A stretch of 64,000 bases of DNA, from NCBI GenBank assembly GCA_012520575.1, contig JAAYOB010000015.1:40705-104704 (forward strand), given 5' to 3'. This DNA is from Candidatus Stramentimicrobium fermentans (GTDB lineage Bacteria > Atribacterota > Phoenicimicrobiia > Phoenicimicrobiales > Stramentimicrobiaceae). The translations under genes were made by a program, and so were the position numbers. Of the stretch, positions 1 through 46,962 are shown one piece after another. The first letter of the stretch is position 1; each line of letters opens with the position of its first letter. The notes below the pieces were generated by a model that saw only the letters and a list, made by a program, of their open reading frames with translations, ran no database searches and had not been told where the DNA came from.

Positions 1-1702
1 CGAAACATACCTCCGGAGCATAGCCGCTGATTACGGTCAGGTTTTCAGTTGCAAACTTTTCTTTGTTCAGATGCAGCAGTTCTACTGCCGCACTTTTGTG
101 CTCGATGGCATATACCTGTCCTTTTTTAGCCTGCAGTGCCATTTCAATTGCCACAGAACCTGTCCCGGCCCCGACATCCCAACAGATAGAGCGTTCTGTC
201 AACTGGAGCTTGGACAGGCATACTGCACGAACCTCGCTCTTCGTCATTGGCACAACACCATCCGCCCCGGCACCACGCTGGAATATACTGTCCGGTAATC
301 CATGGGTTACAACGGCATCAGGGTGGTTGTTTTCAATTAAAGCAACGCTTAAGGTCTCGTAAGAGCCGTCGGTAATATGCTCTACCGTACCTCTTGTTAT
401 CTTTTCATCCGGGTAGCTTAACCGTTCTCCAATGCTGATTTGCACACTTCCCAGGCCGGCATCTACTAAAGAGCGACACAACTCCCGCATACCGTTCTCA
501 CCGCCGACCAACACGAAAACGCGACTATGGGATCGAACATCCGGCACGATATTGTGCTGACGGCCATGTACACTGGTGACGAAAATATCTTCATACGATG
601 TTTTTAAGCGGGCACAAAGATATACCAAGGAACTTAATCCGGGCAAGACCTCCACCTTGCAGGAATCAAGCAGTGGAATGAGCTTTTTTGTGCCGCTGAA
701 AAAACCCGTATCTCCCGACATGACCACCGCAAAGCGCCGGTACTCACGATGGGTCAGAATAAAGTCCGCAATATCTTCGGACGAAATAGCATAGTAAACC
801 CTCTGATTCGGGGTGGCAACCTCTTCCAGCATGCGTTTGGCGCCGATTAAGCAATCGGCTCCTTTTATTACCCGATACACTTCTTTCGTCATGGTTTCGC
901 AGCTTCCCGGACCGATTCCAAGAATATACACATAAGGTATACAGCTACAGCCGAACCGGGAGCACAGCAGCTCTATGGTTTCGGAGAAAGAAATACCTTC
1001 TTTCTGAGAGGGACGTCCAATCACTACAAGGCGTACGCCTGCTTTTAATGCGGCAGAAACCTTTGCATCAAATCTGCCTGCCTCACCGCCATCTTTGCTT
1101 ACAAGCCAGGAAGCAGAAACGGCGCGAAGCATTGCAAGATTCATCTCCTCGGAAAAAGGTCCCTGCATAGCGATAATATGAGATGCTTTTAAATCAGCGG
1201 CATTGCAAGCTTCCAAGGAAGCGTTCATGGGTAAAACGCGGGCATATATGCGGTCGGCAAAATTGGCGAGTTTGCTGAATTTGGCGAGTTCTTTGCTCCC
1301 GATAGTCAGAAGGATATTACCTTCCGTTCCATCCAAGAATTTAACTGCCGTTTCCGTATCGGGAACATACACAGCATCGGAAGATAATTCCGATGCCTCA
1401 CGCAAAAGGCGAAGATATTCCGTTCCGGTCGTATGGCAGGCTGTGGAAATACTTTCCGTAATGGAGGCCGCATATGGATGGGTCGCGTCGATCACCAAAT
1501 CAAATGCTGCATTTGAAAGTATCCGGATAATCTCAGCTAGCGGAAGTCGTCCCGACAGAATCGTCAGGTTATCTGCGGGAGAAAGGAGCGTTTCGCCATA
1601 TTCGGTTGCAACACAGGCGGTAATAGCAACAGGCTGCAAACTCAGAAATTCCACCAGTTTCCGTCCTTCTGTTGTCCCGGCAAAAACACAGATCTTATAC
1701 AT
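1..1702 (-). CDS. cbiJ-cbiET: Precorrin-6x reductase CbiJ fused in-frame to precorrin-6Y methyltransferase CbiE/CbiT. The gene is 3' truncated by the window edge and is absent from the ORF track because no stop codon lies inside the window.
   Basis: My own translation of the minus strand from the ATG at 1702-1700 gives MYKICVFAGTTEGRKLVEFLS... (CbiJ-like, about 255 aa). It then reads without a stop through ...YILGIGPGSCETMTKEVYRVIKGADCLIGAKRML (CbiE-like) and ...VPMTKSEVRAVCLSKLQLTERSICWDVGAGTGSVAIEMA (CbiT-like) to position 1. The start overlaps the cbiH stop. A possible internal GTG start for the CbiE part lies near 931. Confidence 0.75.
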   Translation of the reverse strand, partial: MYKICVFAGTTEGRKLVEFLSLQPVAITACVATEYGETLLSPADNLTILSGRLPLAEIIRILSNAAFDLVIDATHPYAASITESISTACHTTGTEYLRLLREASELSSDAVYVPDTETAVKFLDGTEGNILLTIGSKELAKFSKLANFADRIYARVLPMNASLEACNAADLKASHIIAMQGPFSEEMNLAMLRAVSASWLVSKDGGEAGRFDAKVSAALKAGVRLVVIGRPSQKEGISFSETIELLCSRFGCSCIPYVYILGIGPGSCETMTKEVYRVIKGADCLIGAKRMLEEVATPNQRVYYAISSEDIADFILTHREYRRFAVVMSGDTGFFSGTKKLIPLLDSCKVEVLPGLSSLVYLCARLKTSYEDIFVTSVHGRQHNIVPDVRSHSRVFVLVGGENGMRELCRSLVDAGLGSVQISIGERLSYPDEKITRGTVEHITDGSYETLSVALIENNHPDAVVTHGLPDSIFQRGAGADGVVPMTKSEVRAVCLSKLQLTERSICWDVGAGTGSVAIEMALQAKKGQVYAIEHKSAAVELLHLNKEKFATENLTVISGYAPEVCF

Positions 1703-2426
1703 CACGATACCCTCTTGGAGTTACCATGTTTCCGGTAATCTCCCTTGTCATTTCGTTGCCAATAAATACAGTGCAGAACATATCCACCGTTGCTGACCCG
1801 AGTTCACCCAGGGACATTAAGCGCCTGTTTTCGCCATTTCTGCCAATATACTGAGCTACACCGCAAAGACGATCTTCCGGCAGATGACGCAGCAGTATAT
1901 TACAGGCTATGCGAAGATGATTGGGGCGGCTGCGGCTCGCAGGATTGTAAAGCACAATGGACAGGTCTGCGGCTGCGGCGGATTCCAAACGCTTTTCAAT
2001 CTTCTCCCAGCTGGTAAGACGATCGCTGAGAGAGATGACCGCGAAGTCATGGGTAAGGGGTGCGCCAAGAAGGGCCGCTCCACTGCAGGCAGCAGTCAAG
2101 CCGGGAATGACTTCAACTTCAGGAGCAGTGCATTCGCCGCGCAGCTCGTAAATCAAAGCCGCCATGCCGTAGATACCGCTGTCACCGGAACAAACCATAG
2201 CCACTGTTTTTCCTTGCCTTGCAAGGTCAAGCGCCATCTGGCAACGCTTGGTTTCCTGCGTCATTGGTGTAGTCAAAAACTCTTTATTCGGGTAGTATTC
2301 CCTGATTAAGTCCACATAGACATGATAACCGATAATGACATCGCAGGATTGCAACGCTCGGTCAGCTTTGATTGTCATGTTTTCATAATTACCGGGACCA
2401 ATGCCTATAACGATCAATTTACCCAA
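1695..2426 (-). CDS. cbiH: Precorrin-3B C17-methyltransferase (cobalt-factor III methyltransferase)
   Basis: Track ORF. Tetrapyrrole-methylase N-terminus MGKLIVIGIGPGNYENMT and CbiH-like length. Located in the cbi operon. Confidence 0.85.
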   Translation of the reverse strand: MGKLIVIGIGPGNYENMTIKADRALQSCDVIIGYHVYVDLIREYYPNKEFLTTPMTQETKRCQMALDLARQGKTVAMVCSGDSGIYGMAALIYELRGECTAPEVEVIPGLTAACSGAALLGAPLTHDFAVISLSDRLTSWEKIEKRLESAAAADLSIVLYNPASRSRPNHLRIACNILLRHLPEDRLCGVAQYIGRNGENRRLMSLGELGSATVDMFCTVFIGNEMTREITGNMVTPRGYRDV

Positions 2427-12821: not shown

Positions 12822-13090
12822 CTATAAAACAAAAAACTGCGGCAGTCGCAAAACTGCCGCAGCCGATTTCCTGCAAAGTAAGATGTTTATTTCTCCATAA
12901 ATCGAGAACAAATAGACAGCAAACACGTTTAAGCAGGTCTCCTGACTCGCGTATCATAAGCTCTCCGCACTGTCTTCTCAGGATTGCTCCCAATGACTGA
13001 CTTTCGTCGCGTGCGGTGCCTCCACGCATACAGTGGCGGTACCGTCCCGGATTTTAACCGGGTTCACTATTCTCCACCAATTCCTGTCAA
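12822..13090 (-). promoter_or_regulatory. Cobalamin (AdoCbl) riboswitch with an intrinsic-terminator expression platform
   Basis: Minus-strand RNA carries GTGAACCCGGTTAAAATCCGGGACGGTACCGCCACTGT, then GGGAGCAATCC, then a B12 box GAGTCAGGAGACCTGC. A terminator hairpin CTGCGGCAGTTTTGCGACTGCCGCAG plus a T-run follows (plus-strand 12822-12862). Confidence 0.85.
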
Positions 13091-13133
13091 AATTGGTGAC
13101 ACTTAAACGGTGTATTCTATTCAACTGTCATTT

Positions 13134-13508: not shown

Positions 13509-13527
13509 AAAAAAAATAAATATCGAA

Positions 13528-13775
13528 TATTAAATTTTACAGATCACGGAAGCTGTTGAGAATACAGCACAGCCCCGCTACTGTGATAAGGGACTGATTG
13601 GACATAGGCCACTGAAGCAATTCGGGAAGGCGTCATAATCGGGATGATCTTTAAGTCAGGAGACGGTCTATAAAATTCAAAATGGCTTACTTCGAGGGAG
13701 GTAGGTGCTTTTTTTTGTGCGCTTTTAAAGCCTCTATCTAAAATACGAAGTATCGATAGAGGCTTTTTTATTATT
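13528..13775 (+). promoter_or_regulatory. Cobalamin riboswitch with terminator platform
   Basis: Motifs GTTGAGAATACAGCACAGCCCCGCTACTGT, GCCACTGAAGCAATTCGGGAAGG and the B12 box AAGTCAGGAGACGGTC. A terminator GCCTCTATC...GATAGAGGC plus a T-run lies just before the RBS AGGAGG of the 13793 gene. Confidence 0.8.
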
Positions 13776-26204: not shown

Positions 26205-26402
26205 AGAACACACCCTTTGACCACGAAAGAGTGTAACGGGTTCCCAACAGGCAGGTCTCCTGGCTTGAGGCTGTCTAATTGCTGCGCCTTCCCAAAACTT
26301 TTGTTCCAGTGGCGTTATGCAGCTTTCGGTACCTTTTACAGTAACGGGCTTGCGGTGGATTTGCACCACACTTCCCTTAACCTGTCAGGATAATATATTC
26401 AG
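26205..26402 (-). promoter_or_regulatory. Cobalamin riboswitch with terminator platform
   Basis: Minus-strand RNA carries GGTGCAAATCCACCGCAAGCCCGTTACTGT, then GCCACTGG, GGGAAGGCGC and a perfect B12 box AGCCAGGAGACCTGCC. The terminator is ACACTCTTTcgtggtcAAAGGGTGT plus a U-run. Confidence 0.85.
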
Positions 26403-39300: not shown

Positions 39301-39613
39301 GTATACCGAGGTGCCTTTTAATCTGAAAATAGTACCGGATGATCCTCTTTACCCTGAATTGATTGGCGGAGAAGCAAAGCAGCACAAAAAAGAGAAAAAG
39401 CCGCTTATTTTAACTGGCACCATTGACCTAATTTTTCAAGAAGCAGATGGTTGGGTAATAGTAGATTACAAGACCGATTGCCCGCTGAATGTAAAAGATT
39501 ATGCTAAATTGCGAAAGCTCTATCAGCCGCAGATAAAAACTTATGCAGCTATCTGGCAGAGAGTAAGCAAAGAAAGAGTAAAAGAAAGCCACATCTATTT
39601 TATAGAAGAATAG
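36302..39613 (+). CDS. addA: ATP-dependent helicase/nuclease subunit A (UvrD-like helicase plus RecB nuclease)
   Basis: Walker A EASAGSGKTSCLV, helicase motifs, and C-terminal nuclease TGTIDLIFQEADGWVIVDYKTD. Confidence 0.8.
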   Translation: MFKEEKIILQDLSARNKIFSDFEHNFLVEASAGSGKTSCLVKRMVALVKSGRYTVAQIAAITFTRKAALELKERFQQEIESEYRHTNIAKEKELLFSALDNMGQCYIGTIHSFCARILRERPIEAGLDPDFKEMDDIDNAIFMEQAWEEYLANLRIQEHDHFQNLRALGIQISDLEEIYKLVSQFPEVMIVQQKIDKPPLDKAMDELLLFCKEAIEYIPEIPPEKGFDSVQQIVLQTERLKMSPLYAQNYPFRISLLEQFSKNSQKTGAVTLKCWRSKDKAKEYRDTILPKLNKEHIEPTLTRWREYCHNPIFCFVKPAVDYYHRFRARHSLLNFQDLLLNTAALLRDNFEVRRYFQQKYRTILVDEFQDTDPIQAEIIFFLTGEQLAERDWKKLSPRNGSLFVVGDPQQAIYHFRRADIAVYNQVKMLIAENKGQVLRLNANFRSLHSLGRFINPLFQDLFPGQEDELQVNYTPMQTTRDDRKGFISGVYQILISPGKEREVTIKNDAQAIALLIRDWINSKVKIVRTEEELAQGISSVVEYQDFMILLRYKKDMDIYAKVLSEYSIPVTVSGSTALNKSLYLRELLKLLCLLKDPENQILLVAVLRGIFFGFSDQELYEYKEAGGNFTLFADIPDDLENGLGQKFEDFFRQIREYYFWSSEYSPVTALEKIMIKTGLLPYLSGGITENESGSELFFVLEYLRKLEMRDYFSYAGMVEQLERLWESGAEEEFKMGVTENAVRIMNLHKAKGLESPIVFLAMSYSISKPKPKYYIERFGDIPEGHFTVQRYNYFGNGPIIAQPPDWEKYSRLESSYLEAEETRLLYVAATRAKNMLVISSLGAGQNDNRQNVWGPLLKKLAPEAVLEIPAGNNMPLGIIKKSYNLKEYKTEMAKLEQRRKKLSANTYLETSASRLTEFFEIKPSFIPTIDRGGRDWGNAVHEILDYFIKKPEEGDLLEKYIIFVLKKNSIELSRKDELQGIIQKFRQSDLYKRLERALERYTEVPFNLKIVPDDPLYPELIGGEAKQHKKEKKPLILTGTIDLIFQEADGWVIVDYKTDCPLNVKDYAKLRKLYQPQIKTYAAIWQRVSKERVKESHIYFIEE

Positions 39614-39670
39614 CAGAGATTTTAAATAATATTTAATATTATCTTTGAAAAACTTGATTTAATTTTTTTC

Positions 39671-39708
39671 AGCAGTCCTTAGGGGGAACCCTCCCCCTAA
39701 GGACTGCT
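39671..39708. repeat. Perfect 17-bp-stem palindromic hairpin between convergent addA and the HesB-like gene (probable bidirectional terminator or stability element)
   Basis: AGCAGTCCTTAGGGGGA / loop ACCC / TCCCCCTAAGGACTGCT. A T7 run lies immediately 5' on the plus strand. Confidence 0.6.
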
Positions 39709-39718
39709 ACATACGTTA

Positions 39719-40027
39719 TTAGCAGCAGCTGTCGTAAGAATCCCAATTCTGATAATAGACTCGAAAACCTTTTGAAAATAAGTAGCTCTTGTAATCAATA
39801 GTCAAATGTTTGATAGAATCAACTAATTTTTGATGCAAGATAATTTCCAGATCGTCTACATTTAAGCTTATATCATCTTCTTTTTGCTCATCCAGAGCAA
39901 TGCCAAGTCTGGGACCGCCTCAGCCAATACCGGTTATTAACACACGGATTTTTTTATCAGATGATTCCTGCTCCTGCAGCATATTCTTCAACTGTTCAGC
40001 TGCTTTTTCAGTAATATTTATTTCCAC
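39719..40027 (-). CDS. HesB/IscA-like protein with an in-frame TGA at the conserved Cys position (candidate selenoprotein). Not in the ORF track because the TGA splits it into sub-60-aa pieces.
   Basis: My translation from the GTG at 40027 (RBS AAGGAG; the in-frame ATG at 40045 is an alternative start) gives VEINITEKAAEQLKNMLQEQESSDKKIRVLITGIG-TGA-GGPRLGIALDEQKEDDISLNVDDLEIILHQKLVDSIKHLTIDYKSYLFSKGFRVYYQNWDSYDSCC. It aligns with IscA (ITLSDSAAARV...GLRLGVRTSGCSGMAY...GFKFTNPN...CGCG). The Sec machinery genes lie about 1 kb away. Confidence 0.7.
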
Positions 40028-40440
40028 TTTCTTGCTCCTTATCATTACTTTTAACTTAGCACTACATAATAGTAATTGATTTCCAATATATCATAACAGG
40101 AAAAAGCATAATGTCAACAAAAGCTCTTGCCATGAGTATCGCAAACATTCATTTTTTGAGACTGCTAAATGTAAATAATGGTGGAATTCATAATTCTATC
40201 GGGTTTAGTTTTTATTATCCTATACCACCTGACTGTAGGATAAGTTCTTCTGAAAACATAGGGGAAAAATGGGTAAAAAATAATTGAAAAAGAGAGTAAA
40301 AAATTTGGCTTGGTTTTTTAAAAAGGTGGTATAATTAATCATTAATTAAAAATCTTTATAAAAGGTATGATAGAGATTTTTATTTTTAATTTATGACAGT
40401 CCGATAAAGTTTAAAAATTAAGACGGAGGGAGGTGAAAGA

Positions 40441-41097
40441 ATGAAAAAAAAGAAAAACTACTTAGTAATTCTTATTATCCTCTTAATTTCTTTGCTGATG
40501 AGCGGATGCGCAGTCCCCTTCTTTTCAGGAAACGAACCGGTATACATAATTTCCAAACCGGTCAAAATTGCAGTTGTTGGAAATCCTTATAGTTATCAGG
40601 TTGTAGTAGAAGATGATGGAAAAACGGAATTGACCTTCAGTCTCACTGTTGCTCCGGAAGGAATGGAAATTAACAGAGGAACCGGATTAATAAATTGGAC
40701 ACCGACTGCCGAACAGATGGGAGAACATGAGGTAGGTATAGTAGTGAGAGATGGCTGGTACATGGATACACAGAATTATTCTCTTACGGTAAGCACAAAA
40801 CAGTTGAGTTCAATTACTGTAATTCCTTCCAGCATGTCTTTTACTAAAGCTGGTGATACAAAAACAATAACATCTATTACTGCTAAATATAATGATGGTT
40901 CCAGTAAGACAGTCGATAAAGCCGCTTGCACTTTCGTATCTAACAATCCCAGTATTGCCACAGTCGATACAGCAGGTAAGGTAACGTCTAAAGCAAAAGG
41001 GAATACCACCATTACCGTCAGCTATACCGATAATGGTATAACTGAGAGTGCCAAAATTGCTATTACTGTTACTATTGCACCCACCGGCGGTGGCTGA
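40441..41097 (+). CDS. Lipoprotein with a C-terminal bacterial Ig-like (Big_2) domain
   Basis: Signal peptide plus lipobox LLMSGCA. SITVIPSSMSF...ATVDTAGKVTSKAKGNTTITVSYT. Confidence 0.6.
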   Translation: MKKKKNYLVILIILLISLLMSGCAVPFFSGNEPVYIISKPVKIAVVGNPYSYQVVVEDDGKTELTFSLTVAPEGMEINRGTGLINWTPTAEQMGEHEVGIVVRDGWYMDTQNYSLTVSTKQLSSITVIPSSMSFTKAGDTKTITSITAKYNDGSSKTVDKAACTFVSNNPSIATVDTAGKVTSKAKGNTTITVSYTDNGITESAKIAITVTIAPTGGG

Positions 41098-41153
41098 CGT
41101 AGGTAATAAACCTGATAGTTTATCAGGTATGAAAAACTATATTATAACAGGGT

Positions 41154-41249
41154 GGGAGTGGATAGGTTCTGGTGGACCTTGCGGACTTCAAATCCGTGGG
41201 CGGTAATTTATCATTACCGCGGTGGGTTCGATTCCCACCCCTCTCGCCA
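41154..41249 (+). tRNA. selC: tRNA-Sec (selenocysteine tRNA, anticodon UCA)
   Basis: GGGAGTGG-AT-AGGTTC/TGGT/GGACCT (6-bp D stem with 4-nt loop). Anticodon arm GCGGA-CTTCAAA-TCCGT identical to E. coli selC GGACTTCAAATCC. Long variable arm GCGGTAAT-TTATC-ATTACCGC. T arm GTGGG-TTCGATT-CCCAC. 3' G-CCA. The acceptor stem pairs imperfectly in my hand fold. An intrinsic terminator follows. Confidence 0.8.
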
Positions 41250-41434: not shown

Positions 41435-42865
41435 TTGGAAAAGAATCGTAAAGATAACCGTACAAACAATATGCATATTCAATTAGCTCAGCTTCCCAGT
41501 GTGGAGGAAGTTTTACAACAAGAAGAGCTGCGCTTATTAAGCGGCCGTTACTCTCGAAGAATGATTACCCCTCTGGTCAGAGAAGTGTTGGCGGAAGAGA
41601 GAAAAAGAATCAGAGCCGGCGCTCTGCCCCCAACAATTTTCGATATCATAAAGAGCTGCACTACTTTAATCGAACAAGAATATCAATCCCTGATTAAGCC
41701 TGTTATTAACGGAACAGGGGTAGTTTTGCATACCAATTTAGGCAGAGCAGCCTTAGGACAGACCTTGTTTGACGATGCACTGCCTGCTTTAACCGGCTTT
41801 AATAATTTAGAATATAATCTTTGGGATGGGCAACGGGGTAAAAGGGGAGAATTTGTAGAGAAGATGCTGTCAGTTTTTAGCGGGGCGGAAAATGCCCTTA
41901 TCCTTAACAATAATGCTGCTGCTGTTTTTCTTATCTTAAAGGTATTGGCTAAAGATAAAGAGGTCATTATCTCCAGAGGCGAGCTGGTACAAATAGGCGG
42001 CGGATTCCGCATTCCGGATATTTTACGGGAAAGCGGAGCTATACTCCGGGAAGTAGGGACTACCAACCAGACTACTATAACTGATTATCATGATGCCATT
42101 ACTGAAAATACAGGTTTAATCCTGAAAGTCCATCAGAGTAATTTTGCTTTGGAAGGTTTTACCCGGTCGGTTGATATTAAAGAATTAAAAATATTGGGGA
42201 AAAAATATAAATTACCAGTAGTGGCAGACCTGGGCAGCGGTGCTTTTCTGCAGACTGAGCAGTTTGCTTTAGCCCATGAACCCATGGTGCAGGAAATGGT
42301 ACGGAGTGATGCCGATTTAGTCTGCTTCAGTACCGATAAATTATTAGGCGGTCCCCAGGGCGGAATTATTTGCGGGAAATCAGAGTATATTAACCGAATC
42401 AGAAAAGACCCTCTCTATCGTACCTTTCGGGTAGGTAAACTTACCCTATGCCTGCTGCAATCCACCATATTATACTATTTACAGGAAAGAGCTATAGAAG
42501 ATTTACCGCTCTGGAGAATGATCTCTGTTCCTGCCGAAGATATTAAAAAAAGATGTATGCGTTTAGCTCGCAGCTTAAAAAAGAGAGGGATTCCTGCCTA
42601 TATCAGTGAGGGAGTATCTCTTATCGGCGGCGGTTCCTTACCGGGGAAGACCTTGCCTACCTATCTCTTAGGTCTTAAAATAGAGAAAGATGTAGCAGAA
42701 TTAGATAAAAGATTAAGATTATCCGATCCTGCCGTTTTAGGGAGAGTAAAGGATGGACATTTATTCTTTGACCCCAGAACAATCGAACCCCATTATGACA
42801 AAAAATTAGTGGAACTCATTCAATCTGCCTTTTATCAGAAATATAATGAAGAAGAGGTCAGATAA
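41435..42865 (+). CDS. selA: L-seryl-tRNA(Sec) selenium transferase
   Basis: GTGVVLHTNLGRA, HQSNFALEGF and the PLP-lysine region FSTDKLLGGPQGGIICGK. The track start is TTG at 41435. The in-frame ATG at 41471 (MHIQLAQLPSVEEVL) is an alternative start. Confidence 0.85.
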   Translation: MEKNRKDNRTNNMHIQLAQLPSVEEVLQQEELRLLSGRYSRRMITPLVREVLAEERKRIRAGALPPTIFDIIKSCTTLIEQEYQSLIKPVINGTGVVLHTNLGRAALGQTLFDDALPALTGFNNLEYNLWDGQRGKRGEFVEKMLSVFSGAENALILNNNAAAVFLILKVLAKDKEVIISRGELVQIGGGFRIPDILRESGAILREVGTTNQTTITDYHDAITENTGLILKVHQSNFALEGFTRSVDIKELKILGKKYKLPVVADLGSGAFLQTEQFALAHEPMVQEMVRSDADLVCFSTDKLLGGPQGGIICGKSEYINRIRKDPLYRTFRVGKLTLCLLQSTILYYLQERAIEDLPLWRMISVPAEDIKKRCMRLARSLKKRGIPAYISEGVSLIGGGSLPGKTLPTYLLGLKIEKDVAELDKRLRLSDPAVLGRVKDGHLFFDPRTIEPHYDKKLVELIQSAFYQKYNEEEVR

Positions 42866-42871
42866 TTTGCT

Positions 42872-44740
42872 ATGGTTATTTTTGGTACTGCCGGACATAT
42901 CGACCATGGAAAGACCAGCGTCATTCAGGGACTAACCGGTATCGATGCCGATCGCCTGCCGGAGGAAAAATCGAGAGGCTTGACTATTGACCTCGGATTT
43001 GCCTGGCTGGAAACCACCCGGGGCGAAAAAATAGGAATAATCGATGTGCCGGGCCACGAAAATTATATTCGCAATATGATTACCGGTATAACCACTGTAG
43101 ATGCCTTTCTGTTAGTCGTTGATGGCAAAGAAGGATGGATGCCTCAAACGGAAGAGCATTTTCAGATTATCAGATTATTAGATATCAATTATGGCTTGGT
43201 AATTATTACCAAAACAGATTTAGCCTCACCGGAGCGTATAGCAGAAACGGAACAGCAAATAAAAGATAAGATTACCGGTATAAATAAGTTTAATATTCCT
43301 ATTCTTAAGTTCAGTATTAATGATAAAGATAGTATAGATCTGTTAAGGCATGAGGTAGAGAGTGTCAGCAGTCTCATTCCCCTTAAAAAAGACCTTAACA
43401 AACCCCGTCTTTTTGTGGACCGGGTTTTTGAGATAAAGGGGAGCGGTACCGTAGTTACCGGAACATTACTTGATGGGAATTTGTATCAGAATCAATCAGC
43501 AACACTTTTTCCATCAAAAAAAACGATTCGCATCAGACAGATACAAAGCTATAATGATTCGGTAGAAAAAGCGATTTTAGGCAGCCGGGTAGCGCTAAAT
43601 CTTTCCGGTATCAAAAAAGAAGAAGTTCGGAGAGGGGATTTGATTTCCGGTCTCAAAGCACTTCCTTCGGGGAATTTTCTGGATGTCTCTTTCGCCCTTC
43701 TCTCCCGGGAGAATCCTTTTCGTCTGAAAAATGGTACTGAAGTCGAATTTATTTCACATACTAAAATTTTGAGAGGGACTATTATCTTCTCACAAAAAGA
43801 AATGTTGTCCGGGGAAAAATCTTATGTCCAGCTGCGCTTTAAAGAACCGCTCTGGCTCATAATAGGTGATCACTTTATTATCAGACTGCCAGGCTCCAAT
43901 GAGACCATAGGTGGCGGAAGAGTGCTCGCTCTGCAGGAGGATAAGCATAGTTTTCATAATCCTTATTGGGAAAAATGGCTGGAAAGCAGGTCTAAACTGG
44001 ACATTAACTCACTTATCCTCAGTGAATTAGAGAAATATAAGACTATCAAAAAAGGCCTCTTGTTATTGAACAGCCCTTTTTCTCAAGTAGAAATCTATCA
44101 GCATTTGGATAATTTAAACGAGAATAGCAGCCTGTTCTTAATTGATGACCGGGTGGTGAATAATCAATTCTGGAATGAATTAATCAGCCGAGTCTTAGCT
44201 AATTTAAAACAGAAGCACAGTGATTATCCTCTAAAAAAGGGATTTCCTTCAATACAGCTGAAAAATGAATTGCCCGGTTTGTCAGAAGAACTGTTTGATA
44301 ATTTATTAAAATATTTGGTGGAAGAAAATAGTATAGCAGTGAAGGATGGAATGGTTTCTTTGTTCGAACATACTATTGAACTGACGGAATCAGAAGAGAA
44401 AGTGAGAGAGGAAATTTTGCAATATCTCAATGAGAACATCAACAGCCTGCCCACCGAGAAGGAGTTGCAAAATGTTTTTTCCAAAAATATAGAGATGATT
44501 AACTACTTAAAAGAGATGGGAGAAGTTATAAAATTAGCAGATGATATCTGTCTGACACCGGCAATATATGAAAATATGAAAGATGAAATCGTAGCTTTTT
44601 TAAAAAAGAATAAATCTATCACTATTGGCCAGGTCCGTGATTTGCTGCATATCAGTCGAAAATATATTGTACCGCTCTTGACCAGAATGGACGAAGAGGG
44701 TATAACCAAAAGAATTGGCAATGAGAGAACATTATGCTAA
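42872..44740 (+). CDS. selB: Selenocysteine-specific elongation factor
   Basis: GTP-binding motifs GTAGHIDHGKT and DVPGHENY. 622 aa with C-terminal winged-helix region. Confidence 0.85.
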   Translation: MVIFGTAGHIDHGKTSVIQGLTGIDADRLPEEKSRGLTIDLGFAWLETTRGEKIGIIDVPGHENYIRNMITGITTVDAFLLVVDGKEGWMPQTEEHFQIIRLLDINYGLVIITKTDLASPERIAETEQQIKDKITGINKFNIPILKFSINDKDSIDLLRHEVESVSSLIPLKKDLNKPRLFVDRVFEIKGSGTVVTGTLLDGNLYQNQSATLFPSKKTIRIRQIQSYNDSVEKAILGSRVALNLSGIKKEEVRRGDLISGLKALPSGNFLDVSFALLSRENPFRLKNGTEVEFISHTKILRGTIIFSQKEMLSGEKSYVQLRFKEPLWLIIGDHFIIRLPGSNETIGGGRVLALQEDKHSFHNPYWEKWLESRSKLDINSLILSELEKYKTIKKGLLLLNSPFSQVEIYQHLDNLNENSSLFLIDDRVVNNQFWNELISRVLANLKQKHSDYPLKKGFPSIQLKNELPGLSEELFDNLLKYLVEENSIAVKDGMVSLFEHTIELTESEEKVREEILQYLNENINSLPTEKELQNVFSKNIEMINYLKEMGEVIKLADDICLTPAIYENMKDEIVAFLKKNKSITIGQVRDLLHISRKYIVPLLTRMDEEGITKRIGNERTLC

Positions 44741-44776: not shown

Positions 44777-45829
44777 ATGTCCGATAAGAAAGACAATAAG
44801 AAGAGATTAATGCAGCTCGTTACAGCGGCAGGGTGAGCGGCTAAATGGAGCTATCAGGACCTCGGTGAGGTTCTTAAAAAGATGAATCAAATTTCAGACC
44901 ATAATTTATTAAGCAGTTTTGAAAACAATGAAGATGCAGCGGTATACCGTATCAATAGCGATACGGCCATTATCTTTACTACCGACTTTATCACTCCTGT
45001 CGTGAACGATCCATTTACCTTTGGCCAGATTGCTGCTGCCAATGCTTTAAGTGACGTTTTCGCCATGGGCGGCAGGCCCTTAATGGCTTTAAATATCGTC
45101 TGCTTTCCTGAAAATAGATTAGAAGAGTTAGAAAAAATTGTTAGCGGTGGGCTGCAAAAGGTAAAAGAAGCCGGAGCAATATTGGTGGGGGGACATAGCC
45201 TGAAAGATTCTGAGCCCAAATACGGTCTAGCAGTCGTGGGGCTAGTGCATCCGGATAAAGTAATCTGCAATAATAATTGTCAGGAGGGAGATAGAATAAT
45301 ATTAACAAAGCCACTGGGAACCGGTATTATCTCCACCGCTTTAAAGAGTGAATATTTATCCGAAAATGAAGCTCAGGAAGCAATAGGCTGGATGTCAAAA
45401 CTCAATGCTGTTTCCGATGATATTTTAAATTTGGCTATAAACAGTATGACCGATATTACCGGATATGGTTTTCTGGGACACCTCAGTGAAATGGTCCAGG
45501 GCAGTGATGTCGGTGCAGATATTGAGGTTGATAAAATTCCCTTGTTAGCAAATACTGTTGGGCTTGCTCAGGAAGGAGTTATACCAGGGGGAAGTTTCGC
45601 TAATCAGGAAATATTCTCCTGCGGGGTGGAAAAGAAAATTGAGCTGGAACCGGCCAAAGAGATAACACTTTACGATGCTCAAACCTCAGGCGGATTACTC
45701 ATCTCCATTGCCCAAAGAGATGTCGAGCAGGCACTGGACTTGTTGCACAAGGAAGGATTCACTGAAAGCAGTGTGATTGGCAAGATTAGAAAGATAAATA
45801 TAAATGAGAGAAGAATAAGCCTGATATAG
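44777..45829 (+). CDS. selD: Selenide, water dikinase (selenophosphate synthetase) with in-frame UGA (Sec) at 44834-44836. The track shows only the part after the TGA (44882-45829).
   Basis: The upstream in-frame read is MSDKKDNKKRLMQLVTAAG-TGA-AAKWSYQDLGEVLKKMNQ..., aligning with E. coli [24 protein letters not shown] (Sec at Cys17, Lys20 conserved). RBS GAGGGGG lies 8 nt before the ATG at 44777. The downstream hairpin AGGACCUC-GGU-GAGGUUCU at +20 to +38 is a SECIS candidate. Confidence 0.8.
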
Positions 45830-45906: not shown

Positions 45907-46962
45907 ATGATAAGAAACAGGTTTGTGATAATAGTATCGATAATTCTGATTATCCTTTTAGGGATAGGATTTCTAATAAGCAGAATAACCAACAAACTCA
46001 CCGGTCCGCCGGTACTAGCTGTCTCGGAAGAAGTGGGTGATTTGGGAATAATACAAGCAGACCAGCCGCAAGCCCATATCTTTACCCTTAAGAATGAGGG
46101 AGGAGAAACCCTGATTATTGAAAGAGTGCAGACATCATGTGGTTGTACCGCTACCGTATTGTCGGATAAGAAACTGCAGCCCGGTGAAACTACTGAATTA
46201 GAGGTGAGTTTCAATCCTAAAGGTTATCAGGGGGACATTTCTCATTCTGTTTATATCTACAGTAATGACCCGGAGAATCACAGGAGGAAGCTTGTTATCA
46301 AAGGCACTGTAGAGGTCATACCTGCCCCTAAGATTCATTTATCAACAAATCAATGGGATTTTGGCTTACTTTCATCCGGCGATACCTCCTCATTTTCGGT
46401 ACTAATAACCAATGAAGGGCAATTAGACTTAGACATTGAAGATATAGCTTTACCCGAACAAGTTTTCTACCAGCAGGACGAATTAGAACTTCCGGTATCA
46501 TTAGCCCCGGAAGAGGAATTAGAAGTAAAATTTGTCTATGATACCGAAAGACAAGCCCTAGGAGTGGTAAGAGAATATATCCGCCTAACTAACAATGATC
46601 CTGACCACAAGAATATTACCATAAGAATAGAAGGGTACATAAAGGAAAGAGAGGAAACGATTACCATTCGTCCTCTGCAAGGGTTTACAATTACCGGGGA
46701 AAAAGATTATCAGATTTCTGATGCAAAATTCTTAATCAGTAATAATAGCCATAATACACTTAAGGGAATTATTGCAGGCTCCTCTCAGGATTATATTACA
46801 CCACTTATTAAAGAGCTCAATCTATCCCCCGGTGAAGAGAAAGAGATTACGCTTAGAATTGAACAGCAAAATTTGGCGAAACTTGATTTAAATGAAATCA
46901 TCCGGGAATATATTTATTTCAGAGTTCCAATACCGTTAGAGATAGGTTTTGATCTTCCCTAA
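45907..46962 (+). CDS. Membrane-anchored DUF1573-like beta-sandwich repeat protein
   Basis: N-terminal TM helix, then the TSCGCTA motif typical of DUF1573. Confidence 0.45.
   Translation: MIRNRFVIIVSIILIILLGIGFLISRITNKLTGPPVLAVSEEVGDLGIIQADQPQAHIFTLKNEGGETLIIERVQTSCGCTATVLSDKKLQPGETTELEVSFNPKGYQGDISHSVYIYSNDPENHRRKLVIKGTVEVIPAPKIHLSTNQWDFGLLSSGDTSSFSVLITNEGQLDLDIEDIALPEQVFYQQDELELPVSLAPEEELEVKFVYDTERQALGVVREYIRLTNNDPDHKNITIRIEGYIKEREETITIRPLQGFTITGEKDYQISDAKFLISNNSHNTLKGIIAGSSQDYITPLIKELNLSPGEEKEITLRIEQQNLAKLDLNEIIREYIYFRVPIPLEIGFDLP

Follow-up and report, generated by a model that had tools for sequence, protein, structure and literature searches.

A 64,000-nucleotide stretch of the genome assembly of Candidatus Stramentimicrobium fermentans (contig JAAYOB010000015.1, positions 40,705 to 104,704; here called the window) carries, on its minus strand at 39719-40027, a short hesB-like gene interrupted by an in-frame TGA. 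The locus is very probably a functional gene for a 102-amino-acid HesB-like selenoprotein in which UGA codon 36 is decoded as selenocysteine (Sec) by means of a hairpin immediately downstream. The same proposal had been made in a preliminary description of the sequence, and it is supported by the family to which the protein belongs, by conservation of the TGA, by covariation in the hairpin, and by the adjacent Sec machinery. As judged from these comparisons, the gene is a mis-annotated further member of the long-known HesB-like selenoprotein family.

The gene comprises 102 codons and a TAA stop and is read from a GTG codon (40027-40025). Minus-strand translation of 40045-39719 yields MIRSKKVEINITEKAAEQLKNMLQEQESSDKKIRVLITGIG, an internal stop, GGPRLGIALDEQKEDDISLNVDDLEIILHQKLVDSIKHLTIDYKSYLFSKGFRVYYQNWDSYDSCC, and a final stop; the lone internal stop is the TGA at 39922-39920, and the downstream half of the product, GGPRLGIALDEQ...DSYDSCC-stop, follows directly after it in the frame of MIRSKKVEINITEKAAEQLKNMLQEQESSDKKIRVLITGIG. 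Apart from the TGA, the reading frame has no other defect. The preliminary description had given a 103-codon frame, which is confirmed as 102 amino acids plus the stop when counted from GTG 40027, but the upstream ATG at 40045 is less likely to be the start. The GTG is most likely the true start because an AAGGAG ribosome-binding site lies 7 nt ahead of it and because the N termini of the orthologs read MELNITEK or MEINITS. Since the single TGA splits the frame, the gene escapes the open reading frame (ORF) track, as had been pointed out, and the mechanical ORF list holds only a 41-amino-acid piece (39920-40045). The gene had also been called unannotated, which is correct in that the exact gene has no full-length annotation, whereas public gene calls do hold stubs that end at the TGA, 35 amino acids long on 36 contigs and 41 amino acids long on 3 contigs.

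Profile searches were performed with Cys in place of the internal stop. Kinship with IscA/HesB proteins over the full length, as first proposed, was borne out by a match to Pfam family PF01521 (Fe-S_biosyn; 36.1 bits versus a gathering score of 26.3) that covers residues 1-94 of 102. The best NCBIfam match was NF038090 (IscA_HesB_Se; 73.9 bits, E = 1.1e-20), and TIGR01911 (HesB_rel_seleno) was matched with 45.2 bits (E = 1.1e-11). These two models are those that NCBIfam provides for HesB-like selenoproteins, and despite scores below their cut-offs they are the most specific matches of the window protein. Near full-length alignment with the solved structures 2apn (Haemophilus influenzae HI1723, E = 2e-10) and 1nwb (Aquifex Aq_1857), which are of the ErpA/IscA type, places the UGA codon opposite the Cys of their GGGCSG motif. 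Codon 36 (39920-39922, minus strand) is therefore at the first conserved Cys position of the A-type iron-sulfur (Fe-S) carriers, in agreement with the preliminary description. The motif around it, G-U-G-G-P, fits UxGP, which is the signature listed for the HesB-like selenoprotein family (TIGR01911) in a 2026 review of the prokaryotic selenoproteome (PMC13188914).

The window protein is homologous over its full length to the A-type carriers IscA, SufA, and ErpA and keeps their first ligand position and a Cys-rich C terminus. It differs from them in having Sec in place of the first Cys, with G-U-G-G-P for G-G-G-C-S-G, and in ending with ...DSCC-stop where the canonical C terminus is C-G-C-G-x-S-F. 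Canonical IscA genes of this kind, with GGGCSG and a C-terminal CGCGESF, are found at two Ignavibacteria loci (L007 and L008). In place of the A-type ligand set, which consists of the Cys in G-C-x-G and a C-terminal C-x-C, the window protein would present Sec and an S-C-C-stop end, and its score against TIGR00049 (56.4) is below the cut-off of 58.8. It may at best work like the A-type carriers and is not a canonical TIGR00049 member.

HesB-like selenoproteins are a family with precedent. A table published in 2006 lists eleven bacterial members, from Deltaproteobacteria, Clostridia, and Symbiobacterium (PMC1794560), and a member from the archaeon Methanococcus maripaludis was proved by 75Se labeling (PMC11097638). 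In addition, IMG applies the label "HesB-like selenoprotein" to a member of a protein cluster (P0004), the representative of which shares 47% identity with the window protein. Like the known members, the window gene encodes a protein of about 100 amino acids with a HesB/IscA domain, UxGP (here UGGP), and a C-terminal Cys, has a hairpin with an apical-loop G just downstream of the UGA, and resides in an anaerobic host with a full Sec pathway. The PF01521 domain was thus found at the size typical of the family (about 90-110 amino acids), with UGA at the first Cys within UxGP, a conserved UGA, and Cys-containing homologs. The host lineage, which is Atribacterota-like, is absent from the 2006 list, and a literature search returned nothing joining Atribacter with selenocysteine. 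The gene of this lineage also differs from the known members in lying beside a sel operon and in scoring below the cut-offs of both models.

Conservation of the TGA extends far beyond the window. Ten orthologous genes were read as DNA (loci L001-L003, L004, L005, L006, L009, L013, and L136-L139), and TGA occupies the same codon in all ten, at 96% down to about 35% identity to the window protein. They include an independent assembly of the window gene (L004, 96% identity) and three loci at 55% identity (L001, L002, and L003). A word-indexed protein search returned two relatives, both with tryptophan (W) at the Sec column and both with TGA in their contigs, and a scan of one genome per species added two further TGA cases. 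One of these is in a metagenome-assembled genome (MAG) named "Candidatus Atribacteria" (L005; JAKQEP010000054), and the other (L006), at 38% identity and with U-K-G-S rather than UxGP, is the most distant TGA ortholog found in genomes. The homolog in L006 adjoins ilvD (285-1928, minus strand), the gene for the Fe-S enzyme dihydroxy-acid dehydratase, a single case that may be coincidence. A sense codon in close relatives, which the preliminary description had named as evidence against a selenoprotein, was looked for, and the TGA proved to be kept at 96%, 55%, 47%, 38%, and lower identity.

The same pattern was seen on a larger scale when 1.84 billion representative proteins were searched with HMMER. 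The search returned 502 matches, and among the best 150, for which the Sec column was read, the residue was W in 105, Cys in 41, Ser in 2, and a gap in 2. Every W-form protein that was traced to its DNA had TGA (8 of 8: P0001, P0002, P0004, P0005, P0006, P0007, P0010, and P0012). The 105 W (TGA) forms against 41 Cys forms in these best 150 suggest that the closest representatives of the family in metagenomes are mostly Sec forms, and the Cys forms supply the Cys-containing homologs that had been sought. The window protein is a typical family member, since xGP follows the Sec column in 90 of the 105 W forms (exactly GGP in 63) and 77 have, as it does, a Cys within the last six residues.

The ratio of nonsynonymous to synonymous substitution rates (dN/dS) between the window gene and L001 is 0.17 upstream and 0.25 downstream of the TGA, and that between L001 and L005 is 0.05 upstream and 0.13 downstream. 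By this measure, purifying selection acts on both halves of the gene. Ratios this far below 1 in either half indicate that the part after the TGA is translated in the same frame, and on these comparisons the UGA is a programmed codon.

The predicted SECIS (selenocysteine insertion sequence) element is a hairpin at 39884-39900 on the minus strand, UUGCUC-UGGAU-GAGCAA, which occupies positions +20 to +36 after the UGA and lies within the I-A-L-D-E-Q codons. Its stem of 6 bp, capped by the loop UGGAU, is present in the minimum-free-energy fold. Its position had been correctly described at the outset, and the orthologs add conservation with compensatory changes. Covariation was assessed on an ungapped alignment of the ten Sec-form genes, in which seven pairs, six core and one outer, were scored. 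Each of the six core pairs forms in every one of the ten sequences, and compensatory double changes were seen at three of them: U-A is replaced by G-C or A-U, G-C by A-U, and C-G by U-A, the last in two separate lineages. Several of the double changes entail an amino acid replacement, such as that of Ala by Val or Thr or that of Gln by Ser or Leu. The covariation score over the seven pairs was 0.375 versus a shuffled mean of 0.162, a value reached by none of 500 shuffles. When the 3' partner was slid by 1 to 3 columns, pairing fell to 24-60% of cells from 91% in register. Nine sequences share the loop UGGAU, and the tenth has UGGAC. A hairpin at the expected distance, with conserved pairing and covariation, is what a SECIS element would require. 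In common with bacterial SECIS elements, of which that of Escherichia coli fdhF is an example, it lies inside the coding sequence, starts 20 nt after the UGA, and has GG in a 5-nt apical loop. It differs from them in the shortness of the conserved stem (6-7 bp), in showing no bulged U, and in matching no Rfam model.

Homologs of the family that have Cys in place of Sec exist, and some retain what may be a fossil hairpin. One Cys form (L141; G-C-G-G-P, 2097-2417) keeps the hairpin as UUGCUC-UAGAC-GAGCAA, with one loop G changed, and a second (L143, 3001-3321) has none. The former gives the impression of a Sec form that changed to Cys recently and kept a fossil SECIS, an anecdotal comparison of two Cys forms only. 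A "remnant SECIS" is likewise on record for the HesB-like protein of Desulfitobacterium hafniense, which also has Cys (PMC1794560).

The window encodes the machinery that Sec insertion requires. On the plus strand, opposite to the hesB-like gene and 1.1 to 5.8 kb from it, are selC for tRNA-Sec (41153-41248; anticodon UCA; found with ARAGORN and matched by Rfam RF01852 with 73.3 bits versus a gathering score of 47), selA for L-seryl-tRNA(Sec) selenium transferase (41435-42865; TIGR00474, 528.7 bits versus 267.9), selB for the Sec-specific elongation factor (42872-44740; TIGR00475, 353.8 bits versus 242.25), and selD for selenophosphate synthetase (44777-45829; TIGR00476, 332.2 bits, above the cut-off). 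All four had been placed near the gene in the preliminary description. The selD gene itself appears to encode a Sec-containing protein: the listed ORF begins only at 44882 and its TIGR00476 match begins only at profile position 32, and an in-frame extension upstream (MSDKK...VTAAG-U-AAKW, that is, MSDKKDNKKRLMQLVTAAG-U-AAKW) includes a TGA at 44834-44836. An 8-bp hairpin at 44856-44874, AGGACCUC-GGU-GAGGUUCU, begins 20 nt after this UGA, the offset that is also seen in the hesB-like gene and that had been remarked upon before. Of 53 TGA-interrupted frames listed mechanically in the whole window, only selD and the hesB-like gene look coding; the remaining frames were judged by eye to be low-complexity or antisense.

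With these components, SelB carrying GTP and Sec-tRNA(Sec) would bind the hairpin 20 nt past the UGA and deliver Sec at codon 36 with no termination. By homology, the selenol of Sec36 would stand in for the first Cys ligand of the A-type carriers and, together with the C-terminal Cys101 and Cys102 and probably in a dimer, might bind and pass on iron or an Fe-S cluster; put more generally, Sec36 and the C-terminal Cys may form a nucleophilic chalcogen site.

Several observations weigh against the selenoprotein as proposed here. The curated cut-offs of both family models are missed (73.9 versus 85 for NF038090 and 45.2 versus 66.35 for TIGR01911). Folded from the window sequence alone, the hairpin does not exceed shuffled controls in stability (z = 0.02), and Rfam, searched at E values up to 10 over 39600-40200, returned no SECIS or other meaningful family, the weak matches there being on the post-stop hairpin or noise. 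The hairpin also overlaps the conserved peptide ALDE, so that part of its conservation comes from the protein. Sec insertion at the window gene is a prediction made by comparison, and a role as iron or Fe-S carrier is pure inference; a disruption mutant of the hesB-like gene of M. maripaludis had no nitrogen fixation defect (PMC11097638). As to the scores, relatives with the same TGA straddle the cut-offs, scoring 59.8-82.9 against NF038090 and 45.3-75.9 against TIGR01911, with one passing the latter; L006, the most distant of the scored TGA-form relatives, reaches 34.5 and 29.6. The low scores are for this reason best attributed to strict cut-offs and a divergent clade, not to another family. 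As to the hairpin, it is the comparison of orthologs, and not folding energy, that is taken as decisive for the predicted element.

The alternative that survives best, although it is improbable, accepts a selenoprotein and gives it another job, namely, selenium or chalcogen trafficking for the adjacent Sec pathway, such as the supply of selenide to SelD, instead of iron or Fe-S transfer. The HesB-like family has no established function, and in both the window and L005 the hesB-like gene lies about 1 to 2 kb from tRNA-Sec-selA-selB on the opposite strand, the gene order in L005 (addB, addA, hesB-like, two immunoglobulin [Ig]-domain proteins, tRNA-Sec, selA, and selB) being that of the window. 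However, adjacency to the sel operon is confined to these two loci. In L009 and L010 the addA and Ig-domain lipoprotein neighbors are retained but are followed by an EamA transporter, and in L006, L013, L137, and L138 the neighbors are unrelated and tRNA-Sec is absent. In addition, an Ig-domain lipoprotein gene sits between the hesB-like gene and selC, and the protein has the fold and the ligand pattern of A-type carriers. That the protein is functionally tied to the sel operon in the window lineage, for example, by carrying selenium or selenide to SelD or by acting in response to selenium as a partner of the Sec pathway, is a slim prospect; if true, it would provide a first function for an orphan selenoprotein family.

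A still less credible alternative to Sec is that UGA is decoded as another amino acid, through reassignment to Trp or Gly (codes 4 and 25) or through a near-cognate tRNA that inserts Trp or Cys. Low-level read-through of UGA by near-cognate tRNAs does occur in bacteria, and gene callers wrote W at the UGA position on short contigs. These W calls, however, are almost entirely restricted to contigs of less than 2 kb, a length at which gene callers do not choose the code reliably, and under translation table 11 the window contains long genes that run without interruption to TGA-compatible stops, with selA, selB, addA, and addB complete. Moreover, a dedicated tRNA-Sec, SelA, SelB, and SelD are encoded, the UGA takes the place of a ligand that is Cys in homologs, and a conserved hairpin is present at the SECIS distance, all of which favor Sec over other residues. 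Least credible of all is a pseudogene or sequencing error, in which a Cys codon (TGY) has mutated or been misread to TGA and only a 35-amino-acid fragment is made: standard gene callers do treat the gene in this way, in the 35- and 41-amino-acid stubs on 36 and 3 contigs, and the hairpin is thermodynamically unexceptional on the window sequence alone, but the same TGA in the independent assembly and in every ortholog read as DNA, its implied presence in 105 of the 150 best representatives, a frame free of other defects, and post-TGA dN/dS values of 0.13-0.25 exclude this possibility for practical purposes.

The surroundings of the hesB-like gene are partly conserved. Its divergent neighbor (40441-41097, plus strand) encodes a small protein that resembles a lipoprotein and contains Ig-like domains of the He_PIG and Big_2 types; homologs are duplicated in L005 (4104-4787 and 5011-5673) and present in L009 (86-745), and together with addAB they form a conserved local synteny. 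The SelA of the window is 69% identical to that of the Atribacteria MAG (L005), and an identical SelB is present on metagenome contigs, for example, JGI 3300002173 and ENA ERZ27280797. Taken with the synteny of the L005 locus, this makes an uncultured Atribacterota-like anaerobe the probable source, as judged from a single named MAG. Directly downstream of selD, at 45907-46962 on the plus strand, is a gene for a membrane-anchored protein with a choice-of-anchor D domain that matches NF041425 ("OS_HP2 family (seleno)protein") with 89.9 bits against a cut-off of 100. This protein has Cys (TSCGCTA) and its gene has no in-frame TGA; it would seem to represent a further selenoprotein family in its Cys form, located beside the sel operon.

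A promoter-like site on the minus strand at 40117-40090 (TTGACA-16 nt-TATGAT with an upstream TG) begins the approach to the gene, about 60 nt upstream of its start codon; it is a consensus match only, at 11 of 12 positions, and in a consensus scan the total count of such sites in the region was not above shuffled expectation. Past the stop codon by 11 nt, between the convergent addA and hesB-like genes, is a perfect 17-bp hairpin with a 4-nt loop (39671-39708, minus strand). It was not called in a scan for intrinsic terminators because it lacks a following T tract on either strand; an A-run follows it on the hesB-like strand. This hairpin is possibly a transcript-end structure shared by addA and the hesB-like gene. 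Elsewhere in the window, three cobalamin riboswitches were identified at 12915-13121 (minus), 13523-13686 (plus), and 26233-26400 (minus), all of which exceed the Rfam gathering score by a wide margin (91-101 bits); one pair is divergent, with about 400 nt between its members. The G+C content is 47% in the first 8,000 nt, 43% in the next 8 kb, and 38-40% over most of the remainder, and the first 8,000 nt could be a compositional island or contain a different class of genes.

A search of metagenome contigs with the translated DNA pattern G-[U/C]-G-G-P-x4-[A/V]-L-D-E gave at least 120 matches, and among the matches listed none was HesB-like by hidden Markov model; all are ascribed to chance because G+C-rich DNA fits a G+C-rich pattern. 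In public data the family is mis-called in two forms: on long contigs it appears as a stub of 35 to 41 amino acids, and on contigs under about 2 kb it appears at full length with W. The W arises at the Sec column of short contigs because the caller chose a code in which TGA is Trp, and a cheap screen for selenoproteins could look on short contigs for W in columns where Cys is conserved. The hairpin, with its clean compensatory changes within the I/V-A-L-D-E-Q codons, would be a useful small training case for models of the bacterial SECIS. What is known of Sec decoding and of the HesB-like family is left unaltered by the gene described here. For the organism, an uncultured anaerobe in which the NCBIfam cut-offs would not trigger its annotation, restoring the gene adds one selenoprotein to the selenoproteome.

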